The position numbers were made by a program, and so were the translations under genes. From Eledone cirrhosa (taxonomy: Eukaryota), in assembly GCA_964016885.1 (NCBI GenBank), contig OZ024740.1, forward strand, positions 8,370,001 to 8,434,000: 64,000 bases of DNA. The letters are read 5' to 3'. The number at the start of each line of letters is the position of its first letter. The stretch's first letter is position 1. The notes under the pieces are model-generated. The model did not search any database. It saw nothing but the letters and a program-made list of their open reading frames with translations, and was not told where the DNA came from. Positions 3,401 to 39,740 of the stretch are shown in pieces.

Positions 3401-6400
3401 TTAGTATGTCAGTTTCTATTGGTATATCAGTTTCGATTGGTATATTAGTTTCGATTAGTATATCAGTTTCTATAGGTATGTTAGTTTCTATTGGTATATC
3501 AGTTCCGACTGGTATATCAGTTTCGATTGGTATATCAGTTTCGATTGGTATATCAGCTTCGATTAGTATCTCAATTTCTATTGGTATGTCAGTTTCGATT
3601 AGTATATCAGTTTCTATTGGTATGTCAGTTTCTATTGGTATATCAGCTTCGATTGGTATGTCAGTTTCGATTAGTATATCAGTTTATATTGGTATATCAG
3701 TTTCGATTGGTATCTCAGTTTCTATTGTTATATCAGTTTCTATTGGTATGTCAGTTTCGATAGGTATGTCAGTTTCTATTGGTATATCAGTTTCAATTGG
3801 TATGTAAGTTTCGATTGATGTATCAGTTTCGATTGGTATGTCAGTTTCGATTGGTATATCAGTTTCGATTGGTATATCAGTTTCGATTTGTATGTCAGTT
3901 TCGATTAGTATATCAGTTTCGATTAGTATGTCAGTTACTACTGGTATGTCAGTTTTGATTAGTATATCAGTTTCTATCGGTATGTCAGTTTCTATTGGTG
4001 TATCAGTTTCGATTGGTATATCAGTTTCGATTAGTATCTCAGTTTCTATTGGTATGTTAGTTTCCATTAGTATATCAGTTTCTATTGGTATGTCAGTTTC
4101 GATCAGTATGTCAGTTTCTATTGATATATCAGTTTCGATTGGTATATCAGTTTCGATTGGTATATCAGTTTCGATTGGTATGTCAGTTTCTATTGGTATA
4201 TCAATTTCTATTGGTATGTCAGTTTTGATTGGTATATCAGTTTCGATTGGTATGTGAGTTTCGATTGGTATGTCAGTTTCGGTTGGTATATCAGTTCCGA
4301 TTGGTATGTCAGTTTCGATTGGTATGTCAGTTTCGATTGGTATGTCAGTTTCGATTGGTATGTCAATTTCGATTGGTATATCAGTTTCTATTTGTATGTC
4401 AGTTTCGAGTGGTATGTCAGTTTCTATTGGTATATTAGTTTCGATTGATATATCAGTTTCGATTAGTATGTCAGTTTCTACTGGTATGTCAGTTTCGATT
4501 AGTATATCAGTTTCGATTAGTATATCAGTTTCGAATGGTATGTCAGTTTCTATTGGTATGTCAGTTTTGATTGGTATATCAGTTTCAATTAGTATGTCAG
4601 TTTCGATTGGTATGTCAGTTTCGATTGGTTTATCAGTTCCGATTGGTATGTAAGTTTTGATTGGTATGTCAGTTTCGATTAGGATGTCAGTTTCGATTAG
4701 TATATCAGTTTCTATTGGTATGTCAGTTTCGATTGGTTTATCAATTTCGATTTGTATATCAGTTCCTATTGCTATATCAGTTTCCATTGGTATGTCAGTT
4801 TCAATTGGTATGTAAGTTTCGATTGGTATATCAGTTTCGATTGGTATATCAGTTTCTATTGGTATGTCAGTTTCTAATGGTATATCAGTTTCGATTGGTA
4901 TATCAGTTTTGATTAGTATGTCAGTTTCTATTGGTATGTTAGTTTCGATTAGTATATCAGTTTCTATTGGTATGTCAGGTTCGATTGGTATGTCAGTTTC
5001 TATTGATATATCAGTTTCGATTGGTATGTCAGTTTCTATTGGTATATCAGTTTCTATTGGTATGTCAGTTTTGATTGGTATATCAGTTTCGATTGGTATG
5101 TCAGTTTCGATTGGTATGTCAGTTTCGATTGGTATATCAGTTCCGATTGGTATGTCAGTTTCGATTGGTATGTCAGTTTCGATTGGAATATCAGTTTCGA
5201 TTGGTATGTCAGTTTCGATTGGTATGTCAATTTCGATTGGTATATCAGTTTCTATTGGTATGTCAGTTTCGAGTGGTATGTCAGTTTCTATTGGTATATC
5301 AGTTTCGATTTGTATATCAGTTCCTATTGCTATATCTGTTTCTATTGGTATGTCAGTTTCAATTGGTATGTCAGTTTCGATTGGATTGTCAGTTTCGATT
5401 GGTTTATCAGTTCCGATTGGTATGTAAGTTTTAATTGGTATGTCAGTTTCGATTGGTATATCAGTTTCGATTGGTATATCAGTTTCTATTGGTATGTCAG
5501 GTTCTATTGTTATATCAGTTTCGATTGGTATATCAGCTTCGATTAGTATATCAATTTCTATTGGTATGTCAGTTTCGATTAGTATATCAGTTTCTATTGG
5601 TATGTCAGTTTCTATTGGTATATCCGCTTCGATTGGTATATCAGTTTCGATTAGTATGTCAGTTTCTAATTGTATGTCAGTTTCGATTAGTATATCAGTT
5701 TATATTGGTATATCAGTTTCGATTAGTATGTCAGTTTCTAATTGTATGTCAGTTTCGATTAGTATATCAGTTTATATTGGTATATCAGTTTCGATTGGTA
5801 TCTCAGTTTCTATTGTTATATCAGTTTCTATTGGTATGTCAGTTTCGATAGGTATGTCAGTTTCGATTGGGATGTCAGTTTCGATTAGTATATCAGTTTC
5901 TATTGGTATGTCAGTTTCGATTGGTTTATCAATTTCGATTTGTATATCAGTTCCTATTGCTATATCAGTTTCCATTGGTATGTCAGTTTCAATTGGTATG
6001 TAAGTTTCGATTGGTATATCATTTTCGATTGGTATATCAGTTTCTATTGGTATGTCAGTTTCTAATGGTATATCAGTTTCGATTGGTATATCAGTTTCGA
6101 TTAGTATGTCAGTTTCTATTGGTATGTTAGTTTCGATTAGTATATCAGTTTCTATTGGTATGTCAGGTTCGATTGGTATGTCAGTTTCTATTGATATATC
6201 AGTTTCGATTGGTATGTCAGTTTCTATTGGTATATCAGTTTCTATTGGTATGTCAGTTTTGATTGGTATATCAGTTTCGATTGGTATGTCAGTTTCGATT
6301 GGTATGTCAGTTTCGATTGGTATATCAGTTCCGATTGGTATGTCAGTTTCGATTGGTATGTCAGTTTCGATTGGTATATCAGTTTCGATTGGTATGTCAG

Positions 6401-9400
6401 TTTCAATTGGTATGTCAATTTCGATTGGTATATCAGTTTCTATTGGTATGTCAGTTTCGAGTGGTATGTCAGTTTCTATTGGTATATCAGTTTCGATTTG
6501 TATATCAGTTCCTATTGCTATATCTGTTTCTATTGGTATGTCAGTTTCAATTGGTATGTCAGTTTCGATTGGATTGTCAGTTTCGATTGGTTTATCAGTT
6601 CCGATTGGTATGTAAGTTTTAATTGGTATGTCAGTTTCGATTGGTATATCAGTTTCGATTGGTATATCAGTTTCTATTGGTATGTCAGGTTCTATTGTTA
6701 TATCAGTTTCGATTGGTATATCAGCTTCGATTAGTATATCAATTTCTATTGGTATGTCAGTTTCGATTAGTATATCAGTTTCTATTGGTATGTCAGTTTC
6801 TATTGGTATATCCGCTTCGATTGGTATATCAGTTTCGATTAGTATGTCAGTTTCTAATTGTATGTCAGTTTCGATTAGTATATCAGTTTATATTGGTATA
6901 TCAGTTTCGATTAGTATGTCAGTTTCTAATTGTATGTCAGTTTCGATTAGTATATCAGTTTATATTGGTATATCAGTTTCGATTGGTATCTCAGTTTCTA
7001 TTGTTATATCAGTTTCTATTGGTATGTCAGTTTCGATAGGTATGTCAGTTTGTATTGGTATATCAGTTTCGATTGGTATGTAAGTTTCTATTGGTATGTC
7101 AGTTTCGATTGGTATATCAGTTTCGAATGGTATGTCAGTTTCTATTGTTATATCAGTTTCTATTTGTATGTCAATTAGGATAGGTATGTTAGTTTCTATT
7201 GGTATATCAGTTTCGATTGGTATGTCAGTTTCTATTGGTATGTCAGTTTCTATTGGTATATCAGTTTCTATTGGTATGTCAGTTTTGATTGGTATATCAG
7301 TTTCGATTGGTATGTCAGTTTCGATTGGTATGTCAGTTTCGATTGGTAAATCAGTTCCGATTGGTATGTCTGTTTCGATTGGTATGTCAGTTTCGATTGG
7401 TATGTCTGTTTCGATTGGTATATCAATTTCGATGTGTATATCAGTTTCTATTAATATGTTAGTTTCTATTGGAATATCAGTTTTGATTGGTATATCTGTT
7501 TCGATTAGTATTTCAGTTTCGATTGGTATATCAGTTTCTATTGGTATGTCAGTTTCTATTGGTATGTCAGTTGCTATTGGGATATCAGTTTCGATTGGTA
7601 TGTCAGTTTTTGATTGGTATATCAGTTTCGATTTGTATATCAGTTCCTATTGCTATATCAGTTTCTATTGGTATGTCAGTTTCAATTGGTATGTAAGTTT
7701 CGATTGATGTATCAGTTTCGATTGGTATGTCAGTTTTTGATTGGTATATCAGTTTCGATTGGTATGTCAATTTCAATTAGTATATCAGTTTCTATTGGTA
7801 TAACAGTTTCGATTTGTATGTCAGTTTCGAATAGTATATCAGTTTCTATAGGTATGTCAATTTCTATTGATATATCAGTTTCTATTGGTATATCAGTTTC
7901 GATTGAAATATCAGTTTCGATTAGTATGTCAGTTTCTACTGGTATGTCAGTTTCGATTAGTATATCAGTTTCTATTGGTATGTCAGTTTCTAATGGTATA
8001 TCAGTTTCGATTGGTATATCAGTTTCGATTAGTATGTCAGTTTCTATTGGTATGTTAGTTTCGATTAGTATATCAGTTTCTATTGGTATGTCAGTTTCGA
8101 TTGGTATGTCAGTTTCTATTGATATATCAGTTTCGATTGGTATGTCAGTTTCTATTGGTATATCAGTATCTATTGGTATGTCAGTTTTGATTGGTATATC
8201 AGTTTCGATTGGTATGTCAGTTTCGATTGGTATGTCAGTTTCAATTGGTATATCAGTTCCAATTGGTAGGTCAGTTTCGATTGGTATGTCAGTTTCGATT
8301 GGTATATCAGTTTCTATTGGTATGTCAGTTTCGAGTGGTATGTCAGTTTCTATTGGTATATCAGTTTCGATTTGTATATCAGTTCCTATTGCTATATCTG
8401 TTTCTATGGGTATGTCAGTTTCAATTGGTATGTCAGTTTCGATTGGATTGTCAGTTTCGATTGGTTTATCAGTTCCGATTGGTATGTAAGTTTTGATTGG
8501 TATGTCAGTTTCGATTGGTATATCAGTTTCGATTGGTATATCAGTTTCTATTGGTATGTCAGTTTCTACTGGTATGTCAGTTTTGATTGGTATATCAGTT
8601 TCGATTGGTATGTCAGTTTCGATTGGTATGTCAGTTTCGATTGGCATATCAGTTCCGATTGGTATGTCAGTTTCGATTGGTATGTCAGTTTCGATTGGTA
8701 TGTCAGTTTTGATTGGTATGTCAATTTCGATGTGTATATCAGTTTCTATTAGAATGTTAGTTTCTATTGGAATATCAGTTTCGATTGGTATATCTGTTTC
8801 GATTAGTATTTCAGTTTCTATTTGTATGTTAGTTTCGATTAGTATATCAGTTTCAATTGGTATGTCAGTTTCGATCGGTATGTCAGTTTCTATTGATATA
8901 TCAGTTTCGATTGGTATATCAGTTTCGATTGGTATATCAGTTTCATTGGTATGTCAGTTTCTATTGGTATATCAGTTTCTATTGGTATGTCAGTTTTGAT
9001 TGGTATATCAGTTTCGATTGGTATGTCAGTTTCGATTGGTATGTCAGTTTCGATTGGTATATCAGTTTCGATTGGTATGTCAGTTTCGATTGGTATGTCA
9101 ATTTCAATTGGTATATCAGTTTCTATTGGTATGTCAGTTTCATCTGGTATGTCAGTTTCGATTAGTATATCAGTTTCTATTGGTATGTCAGTTTCGATTT
9201 GTATATCAGTTTCGATTTGTATATCAGTTCCTATTGCTATATCTGTTTCTATTGGTATGTCAGTTTCAATTGGTATGTCAGTTTCGTTTGGATTGTCAGT
9301 TTCGATTGGTTTATCAGTTCCGATTGGTATGTAAGTTTTGATTGGTGTGTCAGTTTCGATTGGTATATCAGTTTCGATTGGTATATCAGTTTCTATTGGT

Positions 9401-12400
9401 ATGTCAGTTTCTATTGGTATGTCAGTTTCTATTGGGATATCAGTTTCGATTGGTATATCTGTTTCGATTGATATATCAGTTTCGAATAGTATGTCAGTTT
9501 CTACTGGTATGTCAGTTTCGATTAGTATATCAGTTTCTATTGGTATGTCAGTTTCGATTGGTATAACAGTTTCGATTTGTATATCAGGTCCTATTGCTAT
9601 ATCAGTTTCTATTGGTATGACAGTTTCAATTGGTATGTAAGTTTCGATTGATGCATCAGTTTCGATTGGTATGTCAGTTTCGATTGGTATATTAGTTTCG
9701 ATTGGTATGTCAATTTCAATTAGTATATCAGTTTCTATTGGTATATAAGTTTCGATTTGTATGTCAGTTTCGATTAGTATATCAGTTTCTATAGGTATGT
9801 CAATTTCTATTGGTATATCAGTTTCTATTGGTATATCAGTTTCGATTGATATATCAGTTTCGATTAGTATGTCAGTTTCTACTGGTATGTCAGTTTCGAT
9901 TAGTATATCAGTTTCTATTGGTATGTCAGTTTCTAATGGTATATCAGTTTCGATTGGTATATCAGTTTTGATTAGTATGTCAGTTTCTATTGGTATGTTA
10001 GTTTCGATTAGTATATCAGTTTCTATTGGTATGTCAGTTTCGATCGGTATGTCAGTTTCTATTGGTATATCAGTTTCGATTGGTATGTCAGTTTCGATTG
10101 GTATGTCAATTTCGATTGGTATATCAGTTTCTATTGGTATGTCAGTTTCGAGTGGTATGTCAGTTTCTATTGGTATATCAGTTTCGATTGATATATCAGT
10201 TTCGATTAGTATGTCAGTTTCTACTGTTATGTCAGTTTCGATTAGTATATCAGTTTCTAATGGTATGTCGGTTTCTATTGGTATATCAGATTCGATTGGT
10301 ATATCACTTTCGATTAGTATGTCAGTTCCGATTGGTATGACAGTTTTGATTGGTATATCAGTTTCGATTGGTATGTCAGTTTCGATTGGTATGTCAGTTT
10401 CGATTGGTATGTCAGTTTCGATTGGTATGTCAGTTTCGATGTGTATATCAGTTTCTATTAGTATGTTAGTTTCTATTGGAATATCAGTTTCGATTGGTAT
10501 ATCTGTTTCGATTAGTATTTCAGTTTCTATTTGTATGTTAGTTTCGATTAGTATATCAGTTTCAATTGGTATGTCAGTTTCGATCGGTATGTCAGTTTCT
10601 ATTGATATATCAGTTTCGATTGGTATATCAGTTTCGATTGGTATATCAGTTTCATTGGTATGTCAGTTTCTATTGGTATATCAGTTTCTATTGGTATGTC
10701 AGTTTTGATTGGTATATCAGTTTCGATTGGTATGTCAGTTTCGATTGGTATGTCAGTTTCGATTGGTATATCAGTTTCGATTGGTATGTCAGTTTCGATT
10801 GGTATGTCAATTTCAATTGGTATATCAGTTTCTATTGGTATGTCAGTTTCGTGTGGTATGTCAGTTTCTATTGGTATATAAGTTTTCGATTGATATATCA
10901 GTTTCGATTAGTATGTCAGTTTCATCTGGTATGTCAGTTTCCATTAGTATATCAGTTTCTATTGGTATGTCAGTTTTGATTGGTATATCAGTTTCGATTT
11001 GTATATCAGTTCCTATTGCTATATCTGTTTCTATTGGTATGTCAGTTTCAATTGGTATGTCAGTTTCGTTTGGATTGTCAGTTTCGATTGGTTTATCAGT
11101 TCCGATTGGTATGTAAGTTTTGATTGGTATGTCAGTTTCGATTGGTATATCAGTTTCGATTGGTATATCAATTTCTATTGGTATGTCAGTTTCTAATGGT
11201 ATATCAGTTTCGATTGGTATATCAGTTTTGATTAGTATGTCAGTTTCTATTGGTATGTCAGTTTTGATTGGTATGTCAGTTTCGATTGGTATGTCAGTTT
11301 CTATTGATATATCAGTTTCGATAGGTATGTCAGTTTCTATTGGTATATCAGTTTCTATTGGTATGTCAGTTTTGATTGGTATATCAGTTTCGATTGGTAT
11401 GTCAGTTTCGATTGGTATGTCAGTTTCGATTGGTATATCAGTTCCGATTGGTATGTCAGTTTCGATTGGTACGTCAGTTTCGATTGGTATATCAGTTTCG
11501 ATTGGTATGTCAGTTTCGACTGGTATGTCAATTTCGATTGGTATATCAGTTTCTATTGGTATGTCAGTTTCGAGTTGTATGTCAGTTTCTATTGGTATAT
11601 CAGTTTCGATTTGTATATCAGTTCCTATTGCTATATCTGTTTCTATTGGTATGTCAGTTTCAATTGGTATGTCACTTTCGATTGGATTGTCAGTTTTGAT
11701 TGGTTTATCAGTTCCGATTGGTATGTAAGTTTTGATTGGTATGTCAGTTTCGATTGGTATATCAGTTTCGATTGGTATATCAGTTTCTATTGGTATGTCA
11801 GGTTCTATTGGTATATCAGTTTCGATTGGTATATCAGCTTCGATTAGTATATCAATTTCTATTGGTATGTCAGTTTCGATTACTATATCAGTTTCTATTG
11901 GTATGTCAGTTATATTGGTATATCCGCTTCGATTGGTATATCAGTTTCGATTAGTATGTCAGTTTCTAATTGTATGTCAGTTTCGATTAGTATATCAGTT
12001 TATATTGGTATATCAGTTTCGATTGGTATCTCAGTTTCTATTGTTATATCAGTTTCTATTGGTATGTCAGTTTCGATAGGTATGTCAGTTTCTATTGGTA
12101 TATCAGTTTCGATTGGTATGTAAGTTTCTATTGGTATGTCAGTTTCGATTGGTATATCAGTTTCGAATGGTATGTCAGTTTCTATTGTTATATCAGTTTC
12201 TATTTGTATGTCAATTAGGATATGTATGTTAGTTTCTATTGGTATATCAGTTTCGATTTGTATATCAGTTCCTATTGCTATATCTGTTTCTATTGGTATG
12301 TCAGTTTCAATTGGTATGTCAGTTTCGTTTGGATTGTCAGTTTCGATTGGTTTATCAGTTCCGATTGGTATGTAAGTTTTGATTGGTATGTCAGTTTCGA

Positions 12401-14264
12401 TTGGTATATCAGTTTCGATTGGTATATCAGTTTCTATTGGTATGTCAGTTTCTAATGGTATATCAGTTTCGATTGGTATATCAGTTTCGATTAGTATGTC
12501 AGTTTCTATTGGTATGTTAGTTTCGATTAGTATATCACTTTCTATTGGTATGTCAGTTTCGATTGGTATGTCAGTTTCTATTGATATATCAGTTTCGATT
12601 GGTATGTCAGTTTCTATTGGTATATCAGTTTCTATTGGTATGTCAGTTTTGATTGGTATATCAGTTTCGATTGGTATGTCAGTTTCGATTGGTATGTCAG
12701 TTTCGATTGGTATATCAGATCCGATTGGTATGTCAGTTTCGATTGGTACGTCAGTTTCGATAGCTATATCAGTTTCGATTGGTATGTCAGTTTCGATTGG
12801 TATGTCAATTTCGATTGGTATATCAGTTTCTATTGGTATGTCAGTTTCGAGTGGTATGTCAGTTTCTATTGGTATATCAGTTTCGATTTGTATATCAGTT
12901 CCTATTGCTATATCTGTTTCTATTGGTATGTCAGTTTCAATTGGTATGTCAGTTTCGATTGGATTGTCAGTTTCGATTGGTTTCTCAGTTCCGATTGGTA
13001 TGTAAGTTTTGATTGGTATGTCAGTTTCGATTGGTATATCAGTTTCGATTGGTATATCAGTTTCTATTGGTATGTCAGGTTCTATTGGTATATCAGTTTC
13101 GATTGGTATATCAGCTTCGATTAGTATATCAATTTCTATTGGTATGTCAGTTTCGATTAGTATATCAGTTTCTATTGGTATGTCAGTTTCTATTGGTATA
13201 TCCGCTTCGATTGGTATATCAGTTTCGATTAGTATGTCAGTTTCTAATTGTATGTCAGTTTCGATTAGTATATCAGTTTATATTGGTATATCAGTTTCGA
13301 TTGGTATCTCAGTTTCTATTGTTATATCAGTTTCTATTGTTATGTCAGTTTCGATAGGTATGTCAGTTTCTATTGGTATATCAGTTTCGATTGGTATGTA
13401 AGTTTCTATTGGTATGTCAGTTTCGATTGGTATATCAGTTTCGAATGGTATGTCAGTTTCTATTGTTATATCAGTTTCTATTTGTATGTCAATTAGGATA
13501 GGTATGTTAGTTTCTATTGGTATATCAGTTTCGATTGGTATGTCAGTTTCTATTGGTATGTCAGTTTCTATTGGTATATCAGTTTCTATTGGTATGTCAG
13601 TTTTGATTGGTATATCAGTTTCGATTGGTATGTCAGTTTCGATTGGTATGTCAGTTTCGATTGGTAAATCAGTTCCGATTGGTATGTCAGTTTCGATTGG
13701 TATGTCAGTTTCGATTGGTATGTCAGTTTCGATTGGTATATCAATTTCGATGTGTATATCAGTTTCTATTAATATGTTAGTTTCTATTGGAATATCAGTT
13801 TTGATTGGTATATCTGTTTCGATTAGTATTTTAGTTTCGATTGGTATATCAGTTTCTATTGGTATGTCAGTTTCTATTGGTATGTCAGTTTCTATTGGGA
13901 TATCAGTTTCGATTGGTATATCAGTTTCGATTGATATATCAGTTTCGAATAGTATGTCAGTTTCTACTGGTATGTCAGTTTCGATTAGTATATCAGTTTC
14001 TATTGGTATGTCAGTTTCGATTGGTATATCAGTTTCGATTTGTATATCAGTTCCTATTGCTATATCAGTTTCTATTGGTATGTCAGTTTCAATTGGTATG
14101 TAAGTTTCGATTGATGTATCAGTTTCGATTGGTATGTTAGTTTTTGATTGGTATATCAGTTTCGATTGGTATGTCAATTTCAATTAGTATATCAGTTTCT
14201 ATTGGTATATCAGTTTCGATTTGTATGTCAGTTTCGAATAGTATATCAGTTTCTATAGGTATGT
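473..14264 (+). repeat. 18-bp satellite array, segment 1; consensus TCAGTTTC(G/T)ATTGGTAT(G/A)
   Basis: Continuous 18-nt periodicity with single-base variants and occasional 17/19-nt monomers. The 6-aa periodic translation appears in all open frames. Confidence 0.99.
4670..7040 (+). repeat. Higher-order tandem duplication, 1188 bp (66 monomers) x2; boundaries approximate
   Basis: Near-identical ORF-track strings at a constant offset of 1188 (4864/6052, 5075/6263, 5310/6498, 5435/6623, 5440/6628). Shared rare variant TCCGCTTCG at ~5623 and ~6811. Confidence 0.9.
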
Positions 14265-17137
14265 GGGTGGGAAATGACGATGGGATGGGTGGTGTAGGTA
14301 TACTATTAGCTGACAAGTGGGTAGATAAAGTAATCTCAGTGTACAGGGTAAATGCAAGAATCATTAAACTCAGACTAGTCCTGAATAAGACAATTACCAC
14401 AATAATATCAGCTTACGCACCCCAATCGGGGCTGCCAGACGAACTTAAGGATAGGTTTTACGAGTCCCTAATACACACTACTGCTCTAACAGACGACAAG
14501 GACTTCCTAATCATTGCAGGAGATTTTAACGGACACGTAGGTAAACACTGCGACGGCTTCAATAGAGTACATGGAGGCCATGGAGTTGGCACAAGGAATG
14601 AGGAAGGATTCAGACTTCTAGAATTCTGCGACGCCAATGACATGTCGATATGTAACACAAACTTTAAAAAACCCGACAACCACCTGATCACCTATAGATC
14701 AGGGGAGCACTCTAGTCAGTTAGATTTTATCCTCATCAGAGGACGTGACAGATGGACGGTCGTAAACACAAAAGCCTTCCCTAGTGAGGAATGTACATCC
14801 CAACATAGCTTAGTTGTCAGCGACCTCACGGTCAGAACTAGACGAGCCCTGAAACAGAGGCCAACCTGGAGAAGAAAGATCTGGAAGCTGAAAGTCCCCT
14901 CAACCAGTAACAGATTTAAAGATATTTTACTCAACGCCTACGACAGTAAAGAAGAACAGATAGAGACATTTAACGTAGAAGAGAACTGGGAGTTCCTAAA
15001 AAATAACTTACTAGAGGCGACGGATGAGGTTTGTGGCTGGAGTAAGACCTCAAGCAGGAGGAGAGTGACTTGGTGGTGGAACAATAAGGTAGATGAAGCA
15101 GTCAAGGCCAAGAGACAGGCATGGAAAGAATGGAAGAACGGGGGGAGCAGGGTACATTACATAGAGACCAAGAGGGAAGCTAGGCGACAAGTATACTTAG
15201 CTAGGAGGGAAGCAGAGGATAGAAAATTCAAGCATGTTTTACAACGTGAGGACCAGAAACAGGAGGTATTCAAGATTGCGAGGCAGTGTGTCAGAGATAG
15301 TTGTGATGTCATTGGAGAGAAGTGTATCCGGAATGATAAAGGTGAGCTTGCCCTCACAAGTGCTGAGAAGAAAGATGCATGGAAGAGTCATTATGATAGA
15401 TTACTAAATGAGGAGAATGCATGGGAAGAAGAGACCCTACCCCACGTAGACCCTATAGAGGGACCAGCAGTACAAGTCAGCGGCAGCGTAGTAAGTAAGG
15501 CAATCAGAGATATGAAGATAGGGAAGGCAACCGGTCCATCGGGTATAGCTGCCGAGATGCTGAAGGCATCTGGGTCTGTAGGTCACACTATAACCACACG
15601 TATCGTTAACCAGGTAATACTAGAGGGGGCCATACCAAAAGATTGGTGCAGTAGCATCATTGTCAACTGCTACAAAGGTAAAGGCGATGCACTAGATAGA
15701 GGAAACTATAGAGGTATAAAGTTGATGGACCAGGTCATGAAAGTAACAGAAAGAGTTATAGCACAGCTGATTAGGGACCGGGTGAATATAGACGAGATGC
15801 AATTTGGGTTTGTTCCAGGGAAAGGCACCACTGATGCGCTCTTCCTTGTGAGGCAATTACAGGAAAAGTACCTAGCTAAAAGTAAGCCACTCTACTTGGC
15901 ATTTGTCGACCTTGAGAAAGCCTTTGACAGAGTTCCACGTGCAGTAATCTGGTGGGCTCTTAGAAAACTAGGAGTAGATGAATGGCTTGTGAAAGCGGTA
16001 CAAGCCATGTATAGGGGAGCAGTCAGCAAAGTTAGGATTGGCAATGAGTATAGCGAGGAATTTAGCGTACAGGTTGGGGTCCACCAGGGCTCTGTTCTTA
16101 GCCCTCTCCTGTTCATCATAGTCCTGCAGGCAATAACGGAGGAGTTTAAGACCGGATGCCCATGGGAACTCCTGTATGCTGATGACCTCGCACTCATAGC
16201 TGAATCTATGGTAGAACTAGAGAATAAATTCCAAACCTGGAAGCAGGGACTAGAGAGAAAGGGCCTCAAAGTCAACATGACAAAGACTAAGGTCCTTATA
16301 AGTAGACGAGAAAACAGAACCCAGATCCCCTCAGGGAAATGGCCTTGCTCAGTATGTAGGAAAGGTGTAGGTAGGAACTCCATTCTTTGCCCCAAATGCA
16401 AACAATGGGTACACAAGAGATGTAGCGGGATCTCAGGAAGCTTAATTAAGAATGTAGGATTCACATGCAGCAGCTGTGCTGAAACAGCAAGCAAACAGCC
16501 ACAGGAAACAAGTACCACCAATCTCTGGGAGGGCCCTGTAGAAACAGTAGACAGCTTCTGCTACCTAGGTGACCGAATTAGCAACGGAGGTGGGTGCTCA
16601 GAAAGTACAATAACTAGAGTAAGAACGGGATGGAAGAAGTTTAGGGAACTACTACCACTGCTAGCTGCAAAAGGCTTCTCCCTCAGAATGAAAGGCAGAC
16701 TGTATGATGCGTGTATCCGAACAGCGATGTTGCATGGTAGTGAGACCTGGGCGCTGAAGGTGGAAGACTTACGTAGATTAGAGAGAAACGAAGCCTGCAT
16801 GCTCCGATGGATGTGTAACAGTAATATACGTGAACGACAAAGCATAAATGAATTGAGAGAGAGACTGAGCATAAGAGGAATCAAATGCTGCGTGCAGGAG
16901 AGGCGGTTACGCTGGTATGGACATGTGATGCGTATGAAGGATGACAGCTGCATAAAAAGGTGCAGAGCACTAGAAGTTGATGGAAACCGCGGAGTGGGGA
17001 GACCCAAGATGACTTGGGATGAGGTGATAAAAGCCGACCTTACCCAACTACACCTCTCAAAGTCAATGACACACGACCGTGACTTCTGGCGTCACGCAGT
17101 AATACAGGGTACCCGACCTCCCATGGGTACATGCTGA
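14261..17137 (+). CDS. LINE ORF2-type polyprotein (apurinic-like endonuclease, N-terminally truncated; reverse transcriptase; PHD finger), 958 aa counted from the satellite-derived ATG
   Basis: APE motifs GGVGILL, ISAYAP, IAGDFNGHVG (14519-14530 = GDFN), CNTNF, QLDFIL, SQH. RT motifs NYRGIKLM, QFGF, AFVDLEKAFD, GVHQGSVLSPLLF, YADD (16175-16186), FCYLG (16556-16570). No stops or frameshifts. The first APE motifs, including the metal-binding QE, are lost by truncation. Confidence 0.93.
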   Translation: MWVGNDDGMGGVGILLADKWVDKVISVYRVNARIIKLRLVLNKTITTIISAYAPQSGLPDELKDRFYESLIHTTALTDDKDFLIIAGDFNGHVGKHCDGFNRVHGGHGVGTRNEEGFRLLEFCDANDMSICNTNFKKPDNHLITYRSGEHSSQLDFILIRGRDRWTVVNTKAFPSEECTSQHSLVVSDLTVRTRRALKQRPTWRRKIWKLKVPSTSNRFKDILLNAYDSKEEQIETFNVEENWEFLKNNLLEATDEVCGWSKTSSRRRVTWWWNNKVDEAVKAKRQAWKEWKNGGSRVHYIETKREARRQVYLARREAEDRKFKHVLQREDQKQEVFKIARQCVRDSCDVIGEKCIRNDKGELALTSAEKKDAWKSHYDRLLNEENAWEEETLPHVDPIEGPAVQVSGSVVSKAIRDMKIGKATGPSGIAAEMLKASGSVGHTITTRIVNQVILEGAIPKDWCSSIIVNCYKGKGDALDRGNYRGIKLMDQVMKVTERVIAQLIRDRVNIDEMQFGFVPGKGTTDALFLVRQLQEKYLAKSKPLYLAFVDLEKAFDRVPRAVIWWALRKLGVDEWLVKAVQAMYRGAVSKVRIGNEYSEEFSVQVGVHQGSVLSPLLFIIVLQAITEEFKTGCPWELLYADDLALIAESMVELENKFQTWKQGLERKGLKVNMTKTKVLISRRENRTQIPSGKWPCSVCRKGVGRNSILCPKCKQWVHKRCSGISGSLIKNVGFTCSSCAETASKQPQETSTTNLWEGPVETVDSFCYLGDRISNGGGCSESTITRVRTGWKKFRELLPLLAAKGFSLRMKGRLYDACIRTAMLHGSETWALKVEDLRRLERNEACMLRWMCNSNIRERQSINELRERLSIRGIKCCVQERRLRWYGHVMRMKDDSCIKRCRALEVDGNRGVGRPKMTWDEVIKADLTQLHLSKSMTHDRDFWRHAVIQGTRPPMGTC

Positions 17138-17446
17138 AGCATATAAACAATATGCCCCCCCCCCCCCCACCGCAAGGTGGTCGTGGAGGTGCCACGGCAA
17201 AAAAGCACCCAGCCCACACTGTAAAGTGGACGTGTAGGCGCCACGAAAAAGCACCCAGCACTCACTGTAAATGAGGTTGGTGTTAGGAAGGGCATCCAGC
17301 TGTAGAAATCAAGCCAGATCAGTTCCTGTATGAGCAAGGCATGGTCAGCCGACCAGACACTGCCCACAACAGGACAACCCGTCTAACCCATGCTAGCGTG
17401 GAAGAACGGACGTAAAACGGTGATAATGATGATGATGATGATGATG
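14265..17446 (+). mobile_element. RTE-clade LINE, 5'-truncated, young copy; flanked by ATGT (14261-14264 and 17447-17450)
   Basis: Single ORF with APE and RT domains, an RTE-type C-terminus (MLHGSETW..RLERNE..MLRW..RRLRWYGHVMR..GRPKMTW) and no C-terminal CCHC knuckle. Followed by a ~280-nt 3' UTR and a GAT-AAT-(GAT)7 tail. Confidence 0.96.
16346..16477 (+). other. PHD-type zinc finger (C4HC3) inserted within the RT
   Basis: CSVC-x10-CPKC-KQWV-H-KR-C-x14-CSSC = C-x2-C-x10-C-x2-C-x4-H-x2-C-x14-C-x2-C. An aromatic residue (F) sits two positions before the 7th ligand, and W two before the His. Confidence 0.85.
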
Positions 17447-17448
17447 AT
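17138..17448 (+). other. Structured LINE 3' UTR: C14 tract, reiterated hairpin modules, terminal nested stem-loop, GAT tail
   Basis: Inverted repeats read by eye: GCATAT/ATATGC (17139-17155), CCACC-GCAA-GGTGG (17167-17180), CGTG/CACG x2, CTCA/TGAG, and CGTCT/GGACG (17380-17412) enclosing CCATG/CGTGG. Confidence 0.8.
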
Positions 17449-20400
17449 GTCAATTTCTATTGGTATATCAGTTTCTATTGGTATATCAGTTTCGATTGAT
17501 ATATCAGTTTCGATTAGTATGTCAGTTTCTACTGGTATGTCAGTTTCGATTAGTATATCAGTTTCTATTGGTATGTCAGTTTCTAATGGTATATCAGTTT
17601 CGATTGGTATATCAGTTTCGATTAGTATGTCAGTTTCTATTGGTATGTTAGTTTCGATTAATATATCAGTTTCTATTGGTATGTCAGTTTCGATCGGTAT
17701 GTCAGTTTCTATTGATATATCAGTTTCGATTGGTATGTCAGTTTCTATTGGTATATCAGTTTCTATTGCTATGTCAGTTTTGATTGGTATATCAGTTTCG
17801 ATTGGTATGTCAGTTTCAATTGGTATATCAGTTCCGATTGGTATGTCAGTTTCGATTGGTATGTCAGTTTCGATTGGTATATCAGTTTCGATTGGTATGT
17901 CAGTTTCGATTGGTATGTCAATTTCGATTGGTATATCAGTTTCTATTGGTATGTCAGTTTCGAGTGGTATGTCAGTTTCTATTGGTATATCAGTTTCGAT
18001 TTGTATATCAGTTCCTATTGCTATATCTGTTTCTATTGGTATGTCAGTTTCAATTGGTATGTCAGTTTCGATTGGATTGTCAGTTTCGATTGGTTTATCA
18101 GTTCCGATTGGTATGTAAGTTTTGATTGGTATGTCAGTTTCGATTGGTATATCAGTTTCGATTGGTATATCAGTTTCTATTGGTATGTCAGTTTCTACTG
18201 GTATGTCAGTTTTGATTGGTATATCCGTTTCAATTGGTATGTCAGTTTCGATTGGTATGTCAGTTTCGATTGGCATATCAGTTCCGATTGGTATGTCAGT
18301 TTCGATTGGTATGTCAGTTTCGATTGGTATGTCAGTTTTGATTGGTATGTCAATTTCGATGTGTATATCAGTTTCTATTAGAATGTTAGTTTCTATTGGA
18401 ATATCAGTTTCGATTGGTATATCTGTTTCGATTAGTATTTCAGTTTCTATTTGTATGTTAGTTTCGATTAGTATATCAGTTTCAATTGGTATGGCAGTTT
18501 CGATCGGTATGTCAGTTTCTATTGATATATCAGTTTCGATTGGTATATCAGTTTCGATTGGTATATCAGTTTCATTGGTATGTCAGTTTCTATTGGTATA
18601 TCAGTTTCGATTGGTATGTAAGTTTCTATTGGTATGTCAGTTTCGATTGGTATATCAGTTTCGAATGGTATGTCAGTTTCTATTGTTATATCAGTTTCTA
18701 TTTGTATGTCAATTAGGATAGGTATGTTAGTTTCTATTGGTATATCAGTTTCGATTGGTATGTCAGTTTCTATTGGTATGTCAGTTTCTATTGGTATATC
18801 AGTTTCTATTGGTATGTCAGTTTTGATTGGTATATCAGTTTCGATTGGTATGTCAGTTTCTATTGGTATGTCAGTTTCGATTGGTAAATCAGTTCCGATT
18901 GGTATGTCAGTTTCGATTGGTATGTCAGTTTCGATTGGTATGTCAGTTTCGATTGGTATATCAATTTCGATGTGTATATCAGTTTCTATTAATATGTTAG
19001 TTTCTATTGGAATATCAGTTTTGATTGGTATATCTGTTTCGATTAGTATTTCAGTTTCGATTGGTATATCAGTTTCTATTGGTATGTCAGTTTCTATTGG
19101 TATGTCAGTTTCTATTGGGATATCAGTTTCGATTGGTATATCAGTTTCGATTGATATATCAGTTTCGAATAGTATGTCAGTTTCTACTGGTATGTCAGTT
19201 TCGATTAGTATATCAGTTTCTATTGGTATGTCAGTTTCGATTGGTATATCAGTTTCGATTTGTATATCAGTTCCTATTGCTATATCAGTTTCTATTGGTA
19301 TGTCAGTTTCAATTGGTATGTAAGTTTCGATTGATGTATCAGTTTCGATTGGTATGTCAGTTTTTGATTGGTATATCAGTTTCGATTGGTATGTCAATTT
19401 CAATTAGTATATCAGTTTCTATTGGTATATCAGTTTCGATTTGTATGTCAGTTTCGAATAGTATATCAGTTTCTATAGGTATGTCAATTTCTATTGGTGT
19501 ATTAGTTTCTATTGGTATATCAGTTTCGATTGATATATCAGTTTCGATTAGTATGTCAGTTTCTACTGGTATGTCAGTTTCGATTAGTATATCAGTTTCT
19601 ATTGGTATGTCAGTTTCTAATGGTATATCAGTTTCGATTGGTATATCAGTTTCGATTAGTATGTCAGTTTCTATTGGTATGTTAGTTTCGATTAGTATAT
19701 CAGTTTCTATTGGTATGTCAGTTTCGATCGGTATGTCAGTTTCTATTGATATATCAGTTTCGATTGGTATGTCAGTTTCTATTGGTATATCAGTTTCTAT
19801 TGGTATGTCAGTTTTGATTGGTATATCAGTTTAGATTGGTATGTCAGTTTCGATTGGTATGTCAGTTTCAATTGGTATATCAGTTCCGATTGGTATGTCA
19901 GTTTCGATTGGTATGTCAGTTTCGATTGGTATATCAGTTTCGATTGGTATGTCAGTTTCGATTGGTATGTCAATTTCGATTGGTATATCAGTTTCTATTG
20001 GTATGTCAGTTTCGAGTGGTATGTCAGTTTCTATTGGTATATCAGTTTCGATTTGTATATCAGTTCCTATTGCTATATCTGTTTCTATTGGTATGTCAGT
20101 TTCAATTGGTATGTCAGTTTCGATTGGATTGTCAGTTTCGATTGGTTTATCAGTTCCGATTGGTATGTAAGTTTTGATTGGTATGTCAGTTTCGATTGAT
20201 ATATCAGTTTCGATTGGTATATCAGTTTCTATTGGTATGTCAGTTTCTACTGGTATGTCAGTTTCGATTGGTATGTCAGTTTCGATTGGCATATCAGTTC
20301 CGATTGGTATGTCAGTTTCGATTGGTATGTCAGTTTCGATTGGTATGTCAGTTTTGATTGGTATGTCAATTTCGATGTGTATATCAGTTTCTATTAGAAT

Positions 20401-22519
20401 GTTAGTTTCTATTGGAATATCAGTTTCGATTAGTATTTCAGTTTCTATTTGTATGTTAGTTTCGATTAGTATATCAGTTTCAATTGGTGTGTCAGTTTCG
20501 ATCGGTATGTCAGTTTCGATCGGTATGTCAGTTTCTATTGATATATCAGTTTCGATTGGTATATCAGTTTCGATTGGTATATCAGTTTCATTGGTATGTC
20601 AGTTTCTATTGGTATATCAGTTTCTATTGGTATGTCAGTTTTGATTGGTATATCAGTTTCGATTGGTATGTCAGTTTCGATTGGTATGTCAGTTTCGATT
20701 GGTATATCAGTTTCGATTGGTATGTCAGTTTCGATTGGTATGTCAATTTCAATTGGTATATCAGTTTCTATTGGTATGTCAGTTTCGTGTGGTATGTCAG
20801 TTTCTATTGGTATATAAGTTTCGATTGATATATCAGTTTCGATTAGTATGTCAGTTTCATCTGGTATGTCAGTTTCGATTAGTATATCAGTTTCTATTGG
20901 TATGTCAGTTTTGATTGGTATATCAGTTTCGATTCGTATATCAGTTCCTATTGCTATATCTGTTTCTATTGGTATGTCAGTTTCAATTGGTATGTCAGTT
21001 TCGTTTGGATTGTCAGTTTCGATTGGTTTATCAGTTCCGATTGGTATGTAAGTTTTGATTGGTATGTCAGTTTCGATTGGTATATCAGTTTCGATTGGTA
21101 TGTCAGTTTCGATTGGTATGTCAGTTTCTATTGATATATCAGTTTCGATTGGTATGTCAGTTTCTATTGGTATATCAGTTTCTATTGGTATGTCAGTTTT
21201 GATTGGTATATCAGTTTCGATTCGTATGTCAGTTTCGATTGGTATGTCAGTTTCGATTGGTATATCAGTTCCGATTGGTATGTCAGTTTCGATTGGTATG
21301 TCAGTTTCGATTGGTATATCAGTTTCGATTGGTATGTCAGTTTCGATTGGTATGTCAATTTCGATTGGTATATCAGTTTCTATTGGTATGTCAGTTTCGA
21401 GTGGTATGTCAGTTTCTATTGGTATATCAGTTTCGATTTGTATATCAGTTCCTATTGCTATATCTGTTTCTATTGGTATGTCAGTTTCAATTGGTATGTC
21501 AGTTTCGATTGGATTGTCAGTTTCGATTGGTTTATCAGTTCCGATTGGTATGTAAGTTTTGATTGGTATGTCAGTTTCGATTGGTATATCAGTTTCGATT
21601 GGTATATCAGTTTCTATTGGTATGTCAGTTTCTATTGGTATGTCAGTTTCTATTGGGATATCAGTTTCGATTGGTATATCTGTTTCGATTGATATATCAG
21701 TTTCGAATAGTATGTCAGTTTCTACTGGTATGTCAGTTTTGATTGGTATATCAGTTTCGATTGGTATGTCAGTTTCGATTGGTATGTCAGTTTCGATTGG
21801 CATATCAGTTCCGATTGGTATGTCAGTTTCGATTGGTATGTCAGTTTCGATTGGTATGTCAGTTTTGATTGGTATGTCAATTTCGATGTGTATATCAGTT
21901 TCTATTAGAATGTTAGTTTCTATTGGAATATCAGTTTCGATTGGTATATCTGTTTCGATTAGTATTTCAGTTTCTATTTGTATGTTAGTTTCGATTAGTA
22001 TATCAGTTTCAATTGGTATGTCAGTTTCGATCGGTATGTCAGTTTCTATTGATATATCAGTTTCGATTGGTATATCAGTTTCGATTGGTATATCAGTTTC
22101 ATTGGTATGTCAGTTTCGATTGGTATATCAGTTTCTATTGGTATGTCAGTTTTGATTGGTATATCAGTTTCGATTGGTATGTCAGTTTCGATTGGTATGT
22201 CAGTTTCGATTGGTATATCAGTTTCGATTGGTATGTCAGTTTCGATTGGTATGTCAATTTCAATTGGTATATCAGTTTCGATTTGTATATCAGTTCCTAT
22301 TGCTATATCTGTTTCTATTGGTATGTCAGTTTCAATTGGTATGTCAGTTTCGTTTGGATTGTGTGTTTCGATTGGTTTATCAGTTCCGATTGGTATGTAA
22401 GTTTTGATTGGTGTGTCAGTTTCGATTGGTATATCAGTTTCGATTGGTATATCAGTTTCTATTGGTATGTCAGTTTCTATTGGTATGTCAGTTTAAATTG
22501 GGATATCAGTTTCGATTGG

Positions 22520-25500
22520 TATATCAGTTTCGATTGATATATCAGTTTCGAATAGTATGTCAGTTTCTACTGGTATGTCAGTTTCGATTAGTATATCAGT
22601 TTCTATTGGTATGTCAGTTTCGATTGGTATATCAGGTCCTATTGCTATATCAGTTTCTATTGGTATGTCAGTTTCAATTGGTATGTAAGTTTCGATTGAT
22701 GTATCAGTTTCGATTGGTATGTCAGTTTCGATTGGTATATCAGTTTCGATTGGTATGTCAATTTCAATTAGTATATCAGTTTCTATTGGTATATCAGTTT
22801 CGATTTGTATGTCAGTTTCGATTAGTATATCAGTTTCTATAGGTATGTCAATTTCTATTGGTATATCAGTTTCTATTGGTATATCAGTTTCGATTGATAT
22901 ATTAGTTTCGATTAGTATGTCAGTTTCTACTGGTATGTCAGTTTCGATTAGTATATCAGTTTCTATTGGTATGTCAGTTTCTAATGGTATATCAGTTTCG
23001 ATTGGTATATCAGTTTTGATTAGTATGTCAGTTTCTATTGGTATGTTAGTTTCGATTAGTATATCAGTTTCTATTGGTATGTCAGTTTCGATCGGTATGT
23101 CAGTTTCTATTGGTATATCATTTTCGATTGGTATGTCAGTTTTGATTGGTATGTCAATTTCGATTGGTATATCAGTTTCTATTGGTATGTCAGTTTCGAG
23201 TGGTATGTCAGTTTCTATTGGTATATCAGTTTCGATTGATATATCAGTTTCGATTAGTATGTCAGTTTCTACTGGTATGTCAGTTTCGATTAGTATATCA
23301 GTTTCTAATGGTATGTCAGTTTCTATTGGTATATCAGATTCGATTGGTATATCACTTTCGATTAGTATGTCAGTTCCGATTGGTATGTCAGTTTTGATTG
23401 GTATATCAGTTTCGATTGGTATGTCAGTTTCGATTGGTATGTCAGTTTCGATTGGTATGTCAGTTTCGATTGGTATGTCAAGTTCGATGTGTATATCAGT
23501 TTCTATTAGTATGTTAGTTTCTATTGGAATATCAGTTTCGATTGGTATATCTGTTTCGATTAGTATTTCAGTTTCTATTTGTATGTATGTTTCGATTAGT
23601 ATATCAGTTTCAATTGGTATGTCAGTTTCGATCGGTATGTCAGTTTCTATTGATATATCAGTTTCGATTGGTATATCAGTTTCGATTGGTATATCAGTTT
23701 CATTGGTATGTCAGTTTCTATTGGTATATCAGTTTCTATTGGTATGTCAGTTTTGATTGGTATATCAGGTTCGATTGGTATGTCAGTTTCGATTGGTATG
23801 TCAGTTTCGATTGGTATATCAGTTTCGATTGGTATGTCAGTTTCGATTGGTATGTCAATTTCAATTGGTATATCAGTTTCTATTGGTATGTCAGTTTCGT
23901 GTGGTATGTCAGTTTCTATTGGTATATAAGTTTCGATTGATATATCAGTTTTGATTAGTATGTCAGTTTCATCTGGTATGTCAGTTTCGATTAGTATATC
24001 AGTTTCTATTGGTATGTCAGTTTTGATTGGTATATCAGTTTTCGATTTGTATATCAGTTCCTATTCCTATATCTGTTTCTATTGGTATGTCAGTTTCAAT
24101 TGGTATGTCAGTTTCGTTTGGATTGTCAGTTTCGATTGGTTTATCAGTTCCGATTGGTATGTAAGTTTTGATTGGTATGTCAGTTTCGATTGGTATATCA
24201 GTTTCGATTGGTATATCAGTTTCTATTGGTATGTCAGTTTCAATTGGTATGTCAGTTTCTATTGGGATATCAGTTTCGATTGGTATATCAGTTTCGATTG
24301 ATATATCATTTTCGAATAGTATGTCAGTTTCTACTGCTATGTCAGTTTCGATTAGTATATCAGTTTCTATTGGTATGTCAGTTTCGATTGCTATATCAGT
24401 TTCGATTTGTATATCAGTTCCTATTGCTATATCAGTTTCTATTGGTATGTCAGTTTCAATTGGTATGTAAGTTTCGATTGATGTATCAGTTTCGATTGGT
24501 ATGTCAGTTTCGATATGTATATCAGTTTCGATTGGTATGTCAATTTCAATTAGTATATCAGTTTCTATTGGTATATCAGTTTCGATTTGTATGTCAGTTT
24601 CGAGTGGTATGTCAGTTTCTATTGGTATATCAGTTTCGATTGATATATCAGTTTCGATTAGTATGTCAGTTTCTACTGGTATGTCAGTTTCGATTAGTAT
24701 ATCAGTTTCTAATGGTATGTCAGTTTCCATTGGTATATCAGATTCGATTGTTATATCACTTTCGATTAGTATGTCAGTTCCGATTGGTATGTCAGTTTTG
24801 ATTGGTATATCAGTTTCGATTGATATGTCAGTTTCGATTGGTATGTCAATTTCGATGTGTATATCAGTTTCTATTAGTATGTTAGTTTCTATTGGAATAT
24901 CAGTTTCTATTGGTATGTCAGTTTTGATTGGTATATCAGTTTCGATTGGTATGTCAGTTTCGATTGGTATGTCAGTTTCGATTGGTATATCAGTTTCGAT
25001 TGGTATGTCAGTTTCGATTGATATATCAGTTTCGAATAGTATGTCAGTTTCTACTGGTATGTCAGTTTCGATTAGTATATCAGTTTCTATTGGTATGTCA
25101 GTTTCGATTGGTATATCAGTTTCGATTTGTATATCAGGTCCTATTGCTATATCAGTTTCTATTGGTATGTCAGTTTCAATTGGTATGTAAGTTTCGATTG
25201 ATGTATCAGTTTCGATTGGTATGTCAGTTTCGATTGGTATATCAGTTTCGATTGGTATGTCAATTTCAATTAGTATATCAGTTTCTATTGGTATATCAGT
25301 TTCGATTTGTATGTCAGTTTCGATTAGTATATCAGTTTCTATAGGTATGTCAATTTCTATTGGTATATCAGTTTCTATTGGTATATCAGTTTCGATTGAT
25401 ATATTAGTTTCGATTAGTATGTCAGTTTCTACTGGTATGTCAGTTTCGATTAGTATATCAGTTTCTATTGGTATGTCAGTTTCTAATGGTATATCAGTTT

Positions 25501-27300
25501 CGATTGGTATATCAGTTTTGATTAGTATGTCAGTTTCTATTGGTATGTTAGTTTCGATTAGTATATCAGTTTCTATTGGTATGTCAGTTTCGATCGGTAT
25601 GTCAGTTTCTATTGGTATATCAGTTTCGATTGGTATGTCAGTTTCGATTGGTATGTCAATTTCGATTGGTATATCAGTTTCTATTGGTATGTCAGTTTCG
25701 AGTGGTATGTCAGTTTCTATTGGTATATCAGTTTCGATTGATATATCAGTTTCGATTAGTAGGTCAGTTTCTACTGGTATGTCAGTTTCGATTAGTATAT
25801 CAGTTTCTAATGGTATGTCAGTTTCTATTGGTATATCAGATTCGATTGGTATATCACTTTCGATTAGTATGTCAGTTCCGATTGGTATGTCAGTTTTGAT
25901 TGGTATATCAGTTTCGATTGGTATGTCAGTTTCGATTGGTATGTCAGTTTCGATTGGTATGTCAGTTTCTATTGGAATATCAGTTTCGATTGGTATATCT
26001 GTTTCGATTAGTATTTCAGTTTCTATTTGTATGTATGTTTCGATTAGTATATCAGTTTCAATTGGTATGTCAGTTTCGATCGGTATGTCAGTTTCTATTG
26101 ATATATCAGTTTCAATTGGTATATCAGTTTCGATTGGTATATCAGTTTCATTGGTATGTCAGTTTCTATTGGTATATCAGTTTCTATTGGTATGTCAGTT
26201 TTGATTGGTATATCAGTTTCGATTGGTATGTCAGTTTCGATTGGTATGTCAGTTTCGATTGGTATATCAGTTTCGATTGGTATGTCAGTTTCGATTGGTA
26301 TGTCAATTTCAATTGGTATATCAGTTTCTATTGGTATGTCAGTTTCGTGTGGTATGTCAGTTTCTATTGGTATATAAGTTTCGATTGATATATCAGTTTT
26401 GATTAGTATGTCAGTTTCATCTGGTATGTCAGTTTCGATTAGTATATCAGTTTCTATTGGTATGTCAGTTTTGATTGGTATATCAGTTTCGATTTGTATA
26501 TCAGTTCCTATTCCTATATCTGTTTCTATTGGTATGTCAGTTTCAATTGGTATGTCAGTTTCGTTTGGATTGTCAGTTTCGATTGGTTTATCAGTTCCGA
26601 TTGGTATGTAAGTTTTGATTGGTATGTCAGTTTCGATTGGTATATCAGTTTCGATTGGTATATCAGTTTCTATTGGTATGTCAGTTTCAATTGGTATGTC
26701 AGTTTCTATTGGGATATCAGTTTCGATTGATATATCAGTTTCGAATAGTATGTCAGTTTCTACTGCTATGTCAGTTTCGATTAGTATATCAGTTTCTATT
26801 GGTATGTCAGTTTCGATTGCTATATCAGTTTCGATTTGTATATCAGTTCCTATTGCTATATCAGTTTCTATTGGTATGTCAGTTTCAATTGGTATGTAAG
26901 TTTCGATTGATGTATCAGTTTCGATTGGTATGTCAGTTTCGATATGTATATCAGTTTCGATTGGTATGTCAATTTCAATTAGTATATCAGTTTCTATTGG
27001 TATATCAGTTTCGATTTGTATGTCAGTTTCGAGTGGTATGTCAGTTTCTATTGGTATATCAGTTTCGATTGATATATCAGTTTCGATTAGTATGTCAGTT
27101 TCTACTGGTATGTCAGTTTCGATAAGTATATCAGTTTCTAATGGTATGTCAGTTTCCATTGGTATATCAGATTCGATTGTTATATCACTTTCGATTAGTA
27201 TGTCAGTTCCGACTGGTATGTCAGTTTTGATTGGTATATCAGTTTCGATTGATATGTCAGTTTCGATTGGTATGTCAATTTCGATGTGTATATCAGTTTC
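22520..27300 (+). repeat. Higher-order duplication of ~2.5 kb x2; boundaries approximate
   Basis: 22719/25221 strings match at offset 2502 (139x18). Shared rare variants TATGTATGTTTCG (~23582, ~26030), CCTATTCCTAT (~24060, ~26507) and TCGATATGTAT. Confidence 0.8.
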
Positions 27301-33300: not shown

Positions 33301-33350
33301 GGTATATCACTTTCGATTAGTATGTCAGTTTCTATTGGTATGTCAGTTTT
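26190..33350 (+). repeat. Higher-order tandem duplication of ~3.6 kb (~200 monomers) x2; boundaries approximate
   Basis: ORF-track strings match at offset 3599 (26399/29998, 26615/30214, 26930/30529, 27757/31356). The offset drops to 3563 and then 3549 after internal deletions. Confidence 0.9.
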
Positions 33351-39033: not shown

Positions 39034-39740
39034 TGGTAGTGAGACCTGGGCGCTGAAGGTGGAAGACTTACGTAGATTAGAGAGAAACGAAGCCTGCATG
39101 CTCCGATGGATGTGTAACAGTAATATACGTGAACGACAAAGCATAAATGAATTGAGAGAGAGACTGAGCATAAGAGGAATCAAATGCTGCGTGCAGGAGA
39201 GGCGGTTACGCTGGTATGGACATGTGATGCGTATGAAGGATGACAGCTGCATAAAAAGGTGCAGAGCACTAGAAGTTGATGGAAACCGCGGAGTGGGGAG
39301 ACCCAAGATGACTTGGGATGAGGTGATAAAAGCCGACCTTACCCAACTACACCTCTCAAAGTCAATGACACACGACCGTGACTTCTGGCGTCACGCAGTA
39401 ATACAGGGTACCCGACCTCCCATGGGTACATGCTGAAGCATATAAACAATATGCCCCCCCCCCACCGCAAGGTGGTCGTGGAGGTGCCACGGCAAAAAAG
39501 CACCCAGCCCACACTGTAAAGTGGACGTGTAGGCGCCACGAAAAAGCACCCAGCACTCACTGTAAATGAGGTTGGTGTTAGGAAGGGCATCCAGCTGTAG
39601 AAATCAAGCCAGATCAGTTCCTGTATGAGCAAGGCATGGTCAGCCGACCAGACACTGCCCACAACAGGACAACCCGTCTAACCCATGCTAGCGTGGAAGA
39701 ACGGACGTAAAACGGTGATGATGATGATGATGATGATGAT
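39034..39740 (+). mobile_element. RTE-clade LINE, heavily 5'-truncated copy (~0.7 kb) of the same family as 14265-17446
   Basis: Matches 16735-17448. The only differences I could see are poly-C length (C10 vs C14) and the tail ((GAT)8 vs GAT-AAT-(GAT)7). Confidence 0.97.
39035..39436 (+). pseudogene. C-terminal 133-codon fragment of the LINE ORF (GSETW...RPPMGTC)
   Basis: Translation is identical to the last 133 aa of the 14261-17137 ORF. It has no start of its own and no RT core. Confidence 0.93.

Follow-up and report, generated by a model that had tools for sequence, protein, structure and literature searches.

A zinc finger of the histone-reading PHD type lies inside the reverse transcriptase (RT) of a LINE that is itself embedded in a satellite array. 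The question raised by this locus is what such a module does for the enzyme and, in particular, whether it guides insertion into the array, as a sequence-only reading had suggested. The window, that is, the whole 64,000-nt stretch that was analysed, consists of an 18-bp satellite array, delimited by TRF, and three LINE pieces (Table 1).

Table 1. Features of the satellite array, the central LINE copy and its finger (positions within the window).
Feature	Position	Strand	Basis
18-bp satellite array, host of the LINE insertion at the GGTAT|RTCAG phase	476..64000	+	TRF, phase analysis
5′-truncated RTE-type LINE copy	14264..17449	+	99.7% identity over 3,184 nt to full-length copy L040
APE endonuclease, N-terminally truncated	14264..14830	+	Pfam Exo_endo_phos_2, E 5e-06, slightly below cut-off
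RT core, motifs 1-6, YADD at 16175	15686..16300	+	Pfam RVT_1, residues 476-680, E 7e-32
Variable linker from RT motif-6 strand to finger (putative start of RT6a-equivalent loop)	16301..16339	+	Top-residue frequency (mean 0.38, vs 0.75 in RT core), model, R2Bm alignment
Pygo-type PHD finger (C4HC3), residues 694-739 of P0001	16340..16477	+	Pfam, PDB sequence search, AlphaFold2 + Foldseek, conservation
Variable linker back to RT motif 7	16478..16540	+	Mean top-residue frequency 0.33
RT motif 7, FCYLG	16556..16570	+	F766, Y768, L769 and G770 invariant

The central LINE copy encodes P0001, an unbroken frame of 958 amino acids that comprises an APE endonuclease, an RT and a thumb/wrist region. Its stop lies at 17137, and the 3′ UTR and a (GAT)n tail, found as a tandem repeat at 17421-17449, lie beyond. 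Full-length copies carry a single ORF of 1040 codons, with APE followed by RT and no ORF1 apparent. In the central copy, 83 codons from the start of this ORF are missing along with the 5′ UTR, and the copy is probably non-autonomous; the ATG at 14261 is derived from the satellite and is not part of the LINE. The modelled APE region, to which full-length copies add the missing codons, resembles ExoIII/APE folds (Z about 15-16), and the model of P0001 superposes on L1 ORF2p (8C8J) with a Z of 26.5 and an rmsd of 3.6 over 552 residues. RT motif 7 is taken here as the primer-grip hairpin. The best protein match to P0001 (63%) comes from Octopus bimaculoides, and in a tree of proteins, drawn without Repbase references, PHD-bearing RTs group beside fish and plant proteins that we take to be RTEs.

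The family is young and large. The finger 29-mer has 6,425 exact matches and the 3′ end 14,619 in a 3.0-Gb genome, the median identity is 99.8% among 102 copies sampled from the best-scoring ones, and the microsatellite tail is (GAT)n in 96/96 copies with a recovered 3′ end. By eye, the ~900 nt upstream of the full-length ORF hold repeated UTR blocks, and these differ in number and order among full-length copies (L031-L050). The two other pieces in the window, likewise 3′ fragments, come from a related subfamily whose 3′ UTR is different (1-476) and from a short copy of the central LINE's own family (39034-39741); each is joined to the satellite at the phase used by the main copy.

The identity of the insert was examined by profile, sequence and structure searches. 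In translation, 16346-16477 (+) reads CSVC...C..C...WVH..C...C..C, flanked by LKVNMTKTK (from 16265) and FCYLG, and a 'WP' that begins 6 nt further upstream belongs to the finger as well. The zinc ligands in P0001 are C696, C699, C710, C713, H718, C721, C736 and C739. Pfam PF00628 scores 27.3 bits on the whole protein and 33.4 bits on an 80-aa piece (cut-off 24); the Pfam models for RING, C1 and DZR, which were considered as other identities, all stay under their own cut-offs. The best PDB sequence matches are Pygo2 PHD chains (E 7.5e-05). An AlphaFold2 model of the 80-aa insert, in which zinc is absent, has a pLDDT of about 80-91 across the finger. The top seven Foldseek matches to it are Pygopus PHDs, the best being 4up0_A (E 5.8e-3, with none at E<=0.001), while 2vpe_A superposes with an rmsd of 2.3 over 59 columns and nearly all matches shown are named PHD-finger entries. 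In the ESM Atlas only generic PHD clusters were found, with PHD_Pygo on 29% of the members of one. An aromatic residue two positions before the last Cys pair is a PHD signature (excerpts of PMC9640981); here it is F734, with F in 95 and Y in 26 of 121 aligned proteins. At the level of sequence and predicted fold, the earlier claim of a complete C4HC3 PHD finger is thus confirmed, including its expected Pfam match and modelled PHD fold.

Conservation of the finger was assessed in several protein sets. All eight zinc ligands are invariant in 121/121 aligned proteins, a set biased by a search query that contained the finger, and a chance origin of the motif is therefore dismissed. The first 35 residues of the finger are about as conserved as the RT core (mean top-residue frequency 0.73 vs 0.75). 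The spacing from YADD to FxYLG is 124-132 aa in the finger-bearing set, compared to 64-74 aa in 116/116 scorable sister RTEs, collected as 120 relatives of one short-linker RTE (4/120 unscorable). The sister linker is hence about 62 residues shorter, which agrees with the earlier remark that only a short linker is found here in most non-LTR RTs. A finger-free query returned 74 proteins, of which 62 carry a full finger (60 recognised by pattern, two by eye), five a damaged or partly deleted one and three a short linker, the other four being unscorable. With the RT core alone as the query, the best 150 representatives at 50% identity comprised 15 with the finger, 79 with a short linker and 56 that could not be scored. 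Public Pfam annotation already marks RVT_1 and PHD together on many of the finger-bearing proteins.

A phylogeny and a search of the same genome bear on the history of the module. In an unrooted, thinly sampled FastTree of 56 chosen RTs, one branch (support 0.988) splits 31 PHD-bearing proteins from 25 others (24 with a short linker and one unscorable). One label change fits a single gain or a single loss; gain is favoured because L1 and R2 are without the finger. Named carriers include an octopus, Hydractinia, a catfish and amphioxus, which bears out the point in the sequence-only reading that similar inserts occur in other aquatic animals. A search of the same genome for PHD-less forms gave 30 loci. 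Of these, 17 are isolated, decayed copies that bear deletions and by eye all look different from one another, and a PHD-less derivative that had been amplified was not among the loci. Damaged single copies aside, no clean loss of the finger was observed within the clade. RTEs that lack a PHD are abundant and successful, and the module is therefore not generally needed. A second PHD-bearing RTE subfamily of the same genome (L207, L208, L214 and similar) has a distinct finger with the same pocket Trp. In addition, about 20 PHD matches of equal length (138 nt) and near-equal score lie at C25 19.3-23.7 Mb, probably another PHD-bearing repeat or a gene array.

The position of the finger within the enzyme is a further source of evidence. 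Its codons continue the reading frame of the RTE-type LINE, after RT motif 6 and before RT motif 7, and in the model it caps the loop that links the motif-6 strand (671-681) to the motif-7 strands. With phmmer, residues 425-679 of the query align to R2Bm 408-666, where the alignment ends. The RT6a loop of R2Bm (residues 672-677), also between motifs 6 and 7, contacts bases of the target 22-34 bp upstream of the nick, and nicking is blocked when the loop is deleted (excerpts of PMC10499050). L1 likewise has a 6a insertion (excerpts of PMC10830420), a feature that goes without mention in the accessible part of PMC13580325. Since the R2Bm alignment ends at 666, the insert begins where RT6a lies. 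By analogy with R2, the one case for which such an orientation is described, the loop of this APE-type RTE enzyme would face target DNA. R2 differs in that its target-engaging loop is short and sequence-specific and belongs to a site-specific RLE element (excerpts of PMC10499050), whereas here a whole zinc finger is carried by a dispersed APE element. The suggestion that the finger has a role at the target gains support from this comparison, because the finger occupies the loop that contacts target DNA in R2.

Pygopus PHDs are the natural reference for the pocket. In Pygo1 the K4me cage is built from Y341, V350, A356 and W366, with D352, and E349 and E360 also matter for H3 binding (excerpts of PMC2726290). 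The pocket residues of the finger in P0001 are W694, V703, S707 and W716. Across the 121 proteins the first position is aromatic in 117, the second V in 115, the third S or A in 121 and the fourth W in 118, and among 69 fingers obtained with PHD-free queries the corresponding numbers are 62, 67, 69 and 68. The Trp two residues ahead of the His ligand had been compared with those of ING and BPTF: W716 does stand two residues ahead of H718 and is conserved, but the pocket is nearer to Pygo, a reader of the active-chromatin mark H3K4me, than to either. An Asp at the first cage position is found in 5/69 fingers, mostly in one deep branch. Such an Asp is a mark of unmethylated-H3K4 readers. The deep-branching Asp fingers are P0170, P0172, P0175, P0176 and P0450.

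The charge of the finger is different from that of its reference. The counterparts of the Pygo acids E349, D352 and E360 are acidic in 1, 0-2 and 6 of 121 proteins, and the finger has a mean net charge of +7.3 (range +1 to +11). The comparison set, 15 PHD matches among host sequences of the same genome that were selected by the Pfam model and are in some cases partial exons, averages about -2. The acid after the third Cys, a residue that the Pfam model favours, is present in 15/15 of them, and the pocket Trp in 1/15, so the Trp is dispensable for the fold. The finger has the hydrophobic cage residues in common with Pygopus PHDs but differs from them in the missing EVND acidic loop, a shorter helix region and the opposite charge. 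Pygo-type acidic residues and a negative face are absent, which places the finger outside the Pygo-family readers on that test.

The kept pocket, the basic domain and the DNA-facing loop together make a two-point tether the best reading. The Pygopus-type PHD in the motif 6-7 loop would serve as a chromatin tether through DNA and likely H3K4me, a tentative proposal to which we give slightly less than an even chance. It would hold the RTE enzyme on chromatin beside the nick. The basic surface is predicted to grip DNA, for which we infer the face of the finger on which the basic residues lie, and the conserved pocket likely takes methylated lysine, e.g. that of H3K4me. Histone reading, if any, would act at the regional level, by biasing integration towards open chromatin or stabilising it there, and the satellite would not be selected. 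A related reading, which we consider rather unlikely, is that in an ancient animal RTE lineage the target-facing RT6a loop has turned into a nucleosome reader that combines H3K4me recognition with a DNA grip, that sub-lineages have switched the pocket between methylated and unmethylated K4, and that a regional integration bias results.

Another possibility, likewise on the doubtful side, is that the finger binds nucleic acid only, be it target DNA, as the RT6a of R2 does, template RNA or the RNA-DNA product, with the Trp pocket repurposed, for example for base stacking. The net charge of about +7 with all three Pygo acids gone and the RT6a position agree with this, and VIN3 offers a precedent, as this basic PHD without the Trp binds DNA or RNA weakly and does not bind H3 (excerpts of PMC9640981). 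However, none of the four hydrophobic cage positions has been lost, the small residue at the pocket floor among them, and a deep sub-lineage has exchanged the first aromatic for Asp; both count against this possibility. Recruitment of a non-histone protein, for instance a host factor for repair, replication or silencing or a methylated protein that mimics the H3 tail, appears improbable. Pygo PHDs do bind BCL9 HD1 on a second face (excerpts of PMC2726290), and the signature aromatic (F/Y734) is kept in 121/121, but there is no candidate partner, and a finger conserved from cnidarians to fish requires a ligand conserved to the same degree, for which histones and DNA qualify. We regard it as very improbable that the finger rides along as a folded passenger, retained only since damage to it misfolds the RT: the motif 6-7 loop tolerates inserts (L1 6a, R2 RT6a), but pocket residues on the surface that are unneeded for the fold are conserved, and the clade shows no clean loss beyond the damaged single copies.

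The proposed steering to the satellite can be judged by counting copies. The satellite dimer has 16,002 matches genome-wide, 15,884 of them on one strand and 442 in the window, and the scaled satellite length of about 2.2 Mb fits a single array at C1 7.23-9.6 Mb. Against expectations of 5.1 and 2.1, this interval holds 33 of the 6,425 exact finger 29-mers (0.5%) and 16 of 2,606 seven-repeat tails, respectively. An equal-size non-satellite interval (C1 57.4-59.8 Mb) contains 18 tails, and copy density is patchy along the first 80 Mb of C1 (dispersion 3.9). With most copies outside the array, a site-specific, satellite-targeting LINE is rejected. The 33 array copies were reduced to 23 by setting aside four without a 3′ end, five failing the satellite match and three duplicates (one double failure). 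The junctions lie at one monomer phase in 18/19 same-sense insertions, and in 4/4 antisense ones at the corresponding phase, across the same AT; the orientation bias is 19:4. Three duplicate pairs (L125/L126, L127/L128, L131/L132) have identical junctions 6-15 kb apart, which indicates that the array duplicated segments after insertion.

Outside the array, the same kind of target recurs. Of 150 listed copies, 103 were analysed, all on C1, and 96 have a 3′ end: 58 run into a TA-type microsatellite, 33 into other DNA and five into satellite, against a TA-type background of 12% of positions in 100 kb. A PHD-less LINE family of the same genome has TATATA after 70/117 tails, and the PHD-bearing family ATATAT after 1,156/2,606, each count being made at one tail length, with tails that differ between the families. 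At base level, insertion is sequence-driven, with an alternating TA-type motif as the site. The PHD as the cause of this preference is rejected, as the PHD-less LINE is at least as TA-prone, and base-level site choice therefore has no need of the finger. In RTEs, site choice has been proposed to proceed via the endonuclease and tail pairing (excerpts of PMC6007223). The flanks show no promoter-like CpG enrichment, with a CpG o/e, a weak proxy, of 0.59 vs 0.63 in the background. Sharing of the Mb-scale clustering with the PHD-less family gave P 0.36 over nine points; chromatin, TA density and selection are candidates for the patchiness. That the finger steers the element to the satellite or its heterochromatin is thus the least probable reading of all, since, despite an array interval at 6.5-8x its length expectation, about 99.5% of copies lie elsewhere, a non-satellite interval is as dense, the one-phase junctions and the orientation bias point to sequence, and a Pygo-type cage reads H3K4me, not H3K9me.

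Several known systems resemble parts of this arrangement. RTE-clade LINEs (Rex3/BovB-like, plant RTE, RTE-2_OV) share with this LINE a single APE-RT ORF and a microsatellite tail, as well as 5′ truncation and tail-target microhomology (excerpts of PMC6007223). The closest PHD-less relatives have 44-54% identity in the RT, and RTE-2_OV carries a C2H2 finger at one end of its 1109-aa ORF, with no PHD described in the accessible part of PMC9115989. As the sequence-only reading stated, PHDs are known from ORF1 of CR1/L2 elements. These are of the same subtype, with top HMM matches to 2vpb_A and 3zpv_A, which are Pygopus PHDs, and general genome targeting was proposed for them by authors who knew of no functional study (excerpts of PMC4120745). 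They sit in ORF1 or N-terminally before the endonuclease, whereas the finger described here splits the RT palm. Fusions of Pygo-orthologous PHDs to retrotransposons of several classes are described from cnidarians, with H3K4me reading implied (excerpts of bioRxiv 10.1101/2021.11.30.470311). That description, in its accessible part, is without the RT-internal position, the RTE lineage or the wider range; members of this lineage may well be among its fusions. Chromodomains of chromoviruses and CopiaMBD are likewise reader modules captured by retroelements, although in LTR elements and outside the RT (excerpts of PMC6673714).

A PHD inside a LINE RT was not described in the titles and abstracts searched, a scope that mostly excluded subscription papers and Repbase, nor does one appear in the accessible parts of PMC9115989, PMC3849965, PMC5786205, PMC6673714 and PMC12503042. 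The RT-internal PHD is a real and conserved variant that has probably been under-described. The function of LINE-encoded PHDs has been an open question since their discovery in ORF1. This very young family offers thousands of almost identical copies, with PHD-less sisters as controls, and in its single-ORF setting a point mutant could test chromatin reading by LINEs at integration. The RT motif 6-7 loop stands out as a site where different LINE lineages attach target-engaging modules. If the nucleosome reader is true, a chromatin reader would be wired into the polymerase domain of a LINE, and the loop would lend itself naturally to plugging in modules that retarget LINE-based gene writers.

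Two minor observations concern the window itself. One reverse frame of the satellite reads (ETDIPI)n and is stop-free for up to 1,377 codons. For 15800-17100, 80-96% of sampled words were found in six runs with four different organism labels, and these matches could reflect close relatives, labelling or recent transfer.
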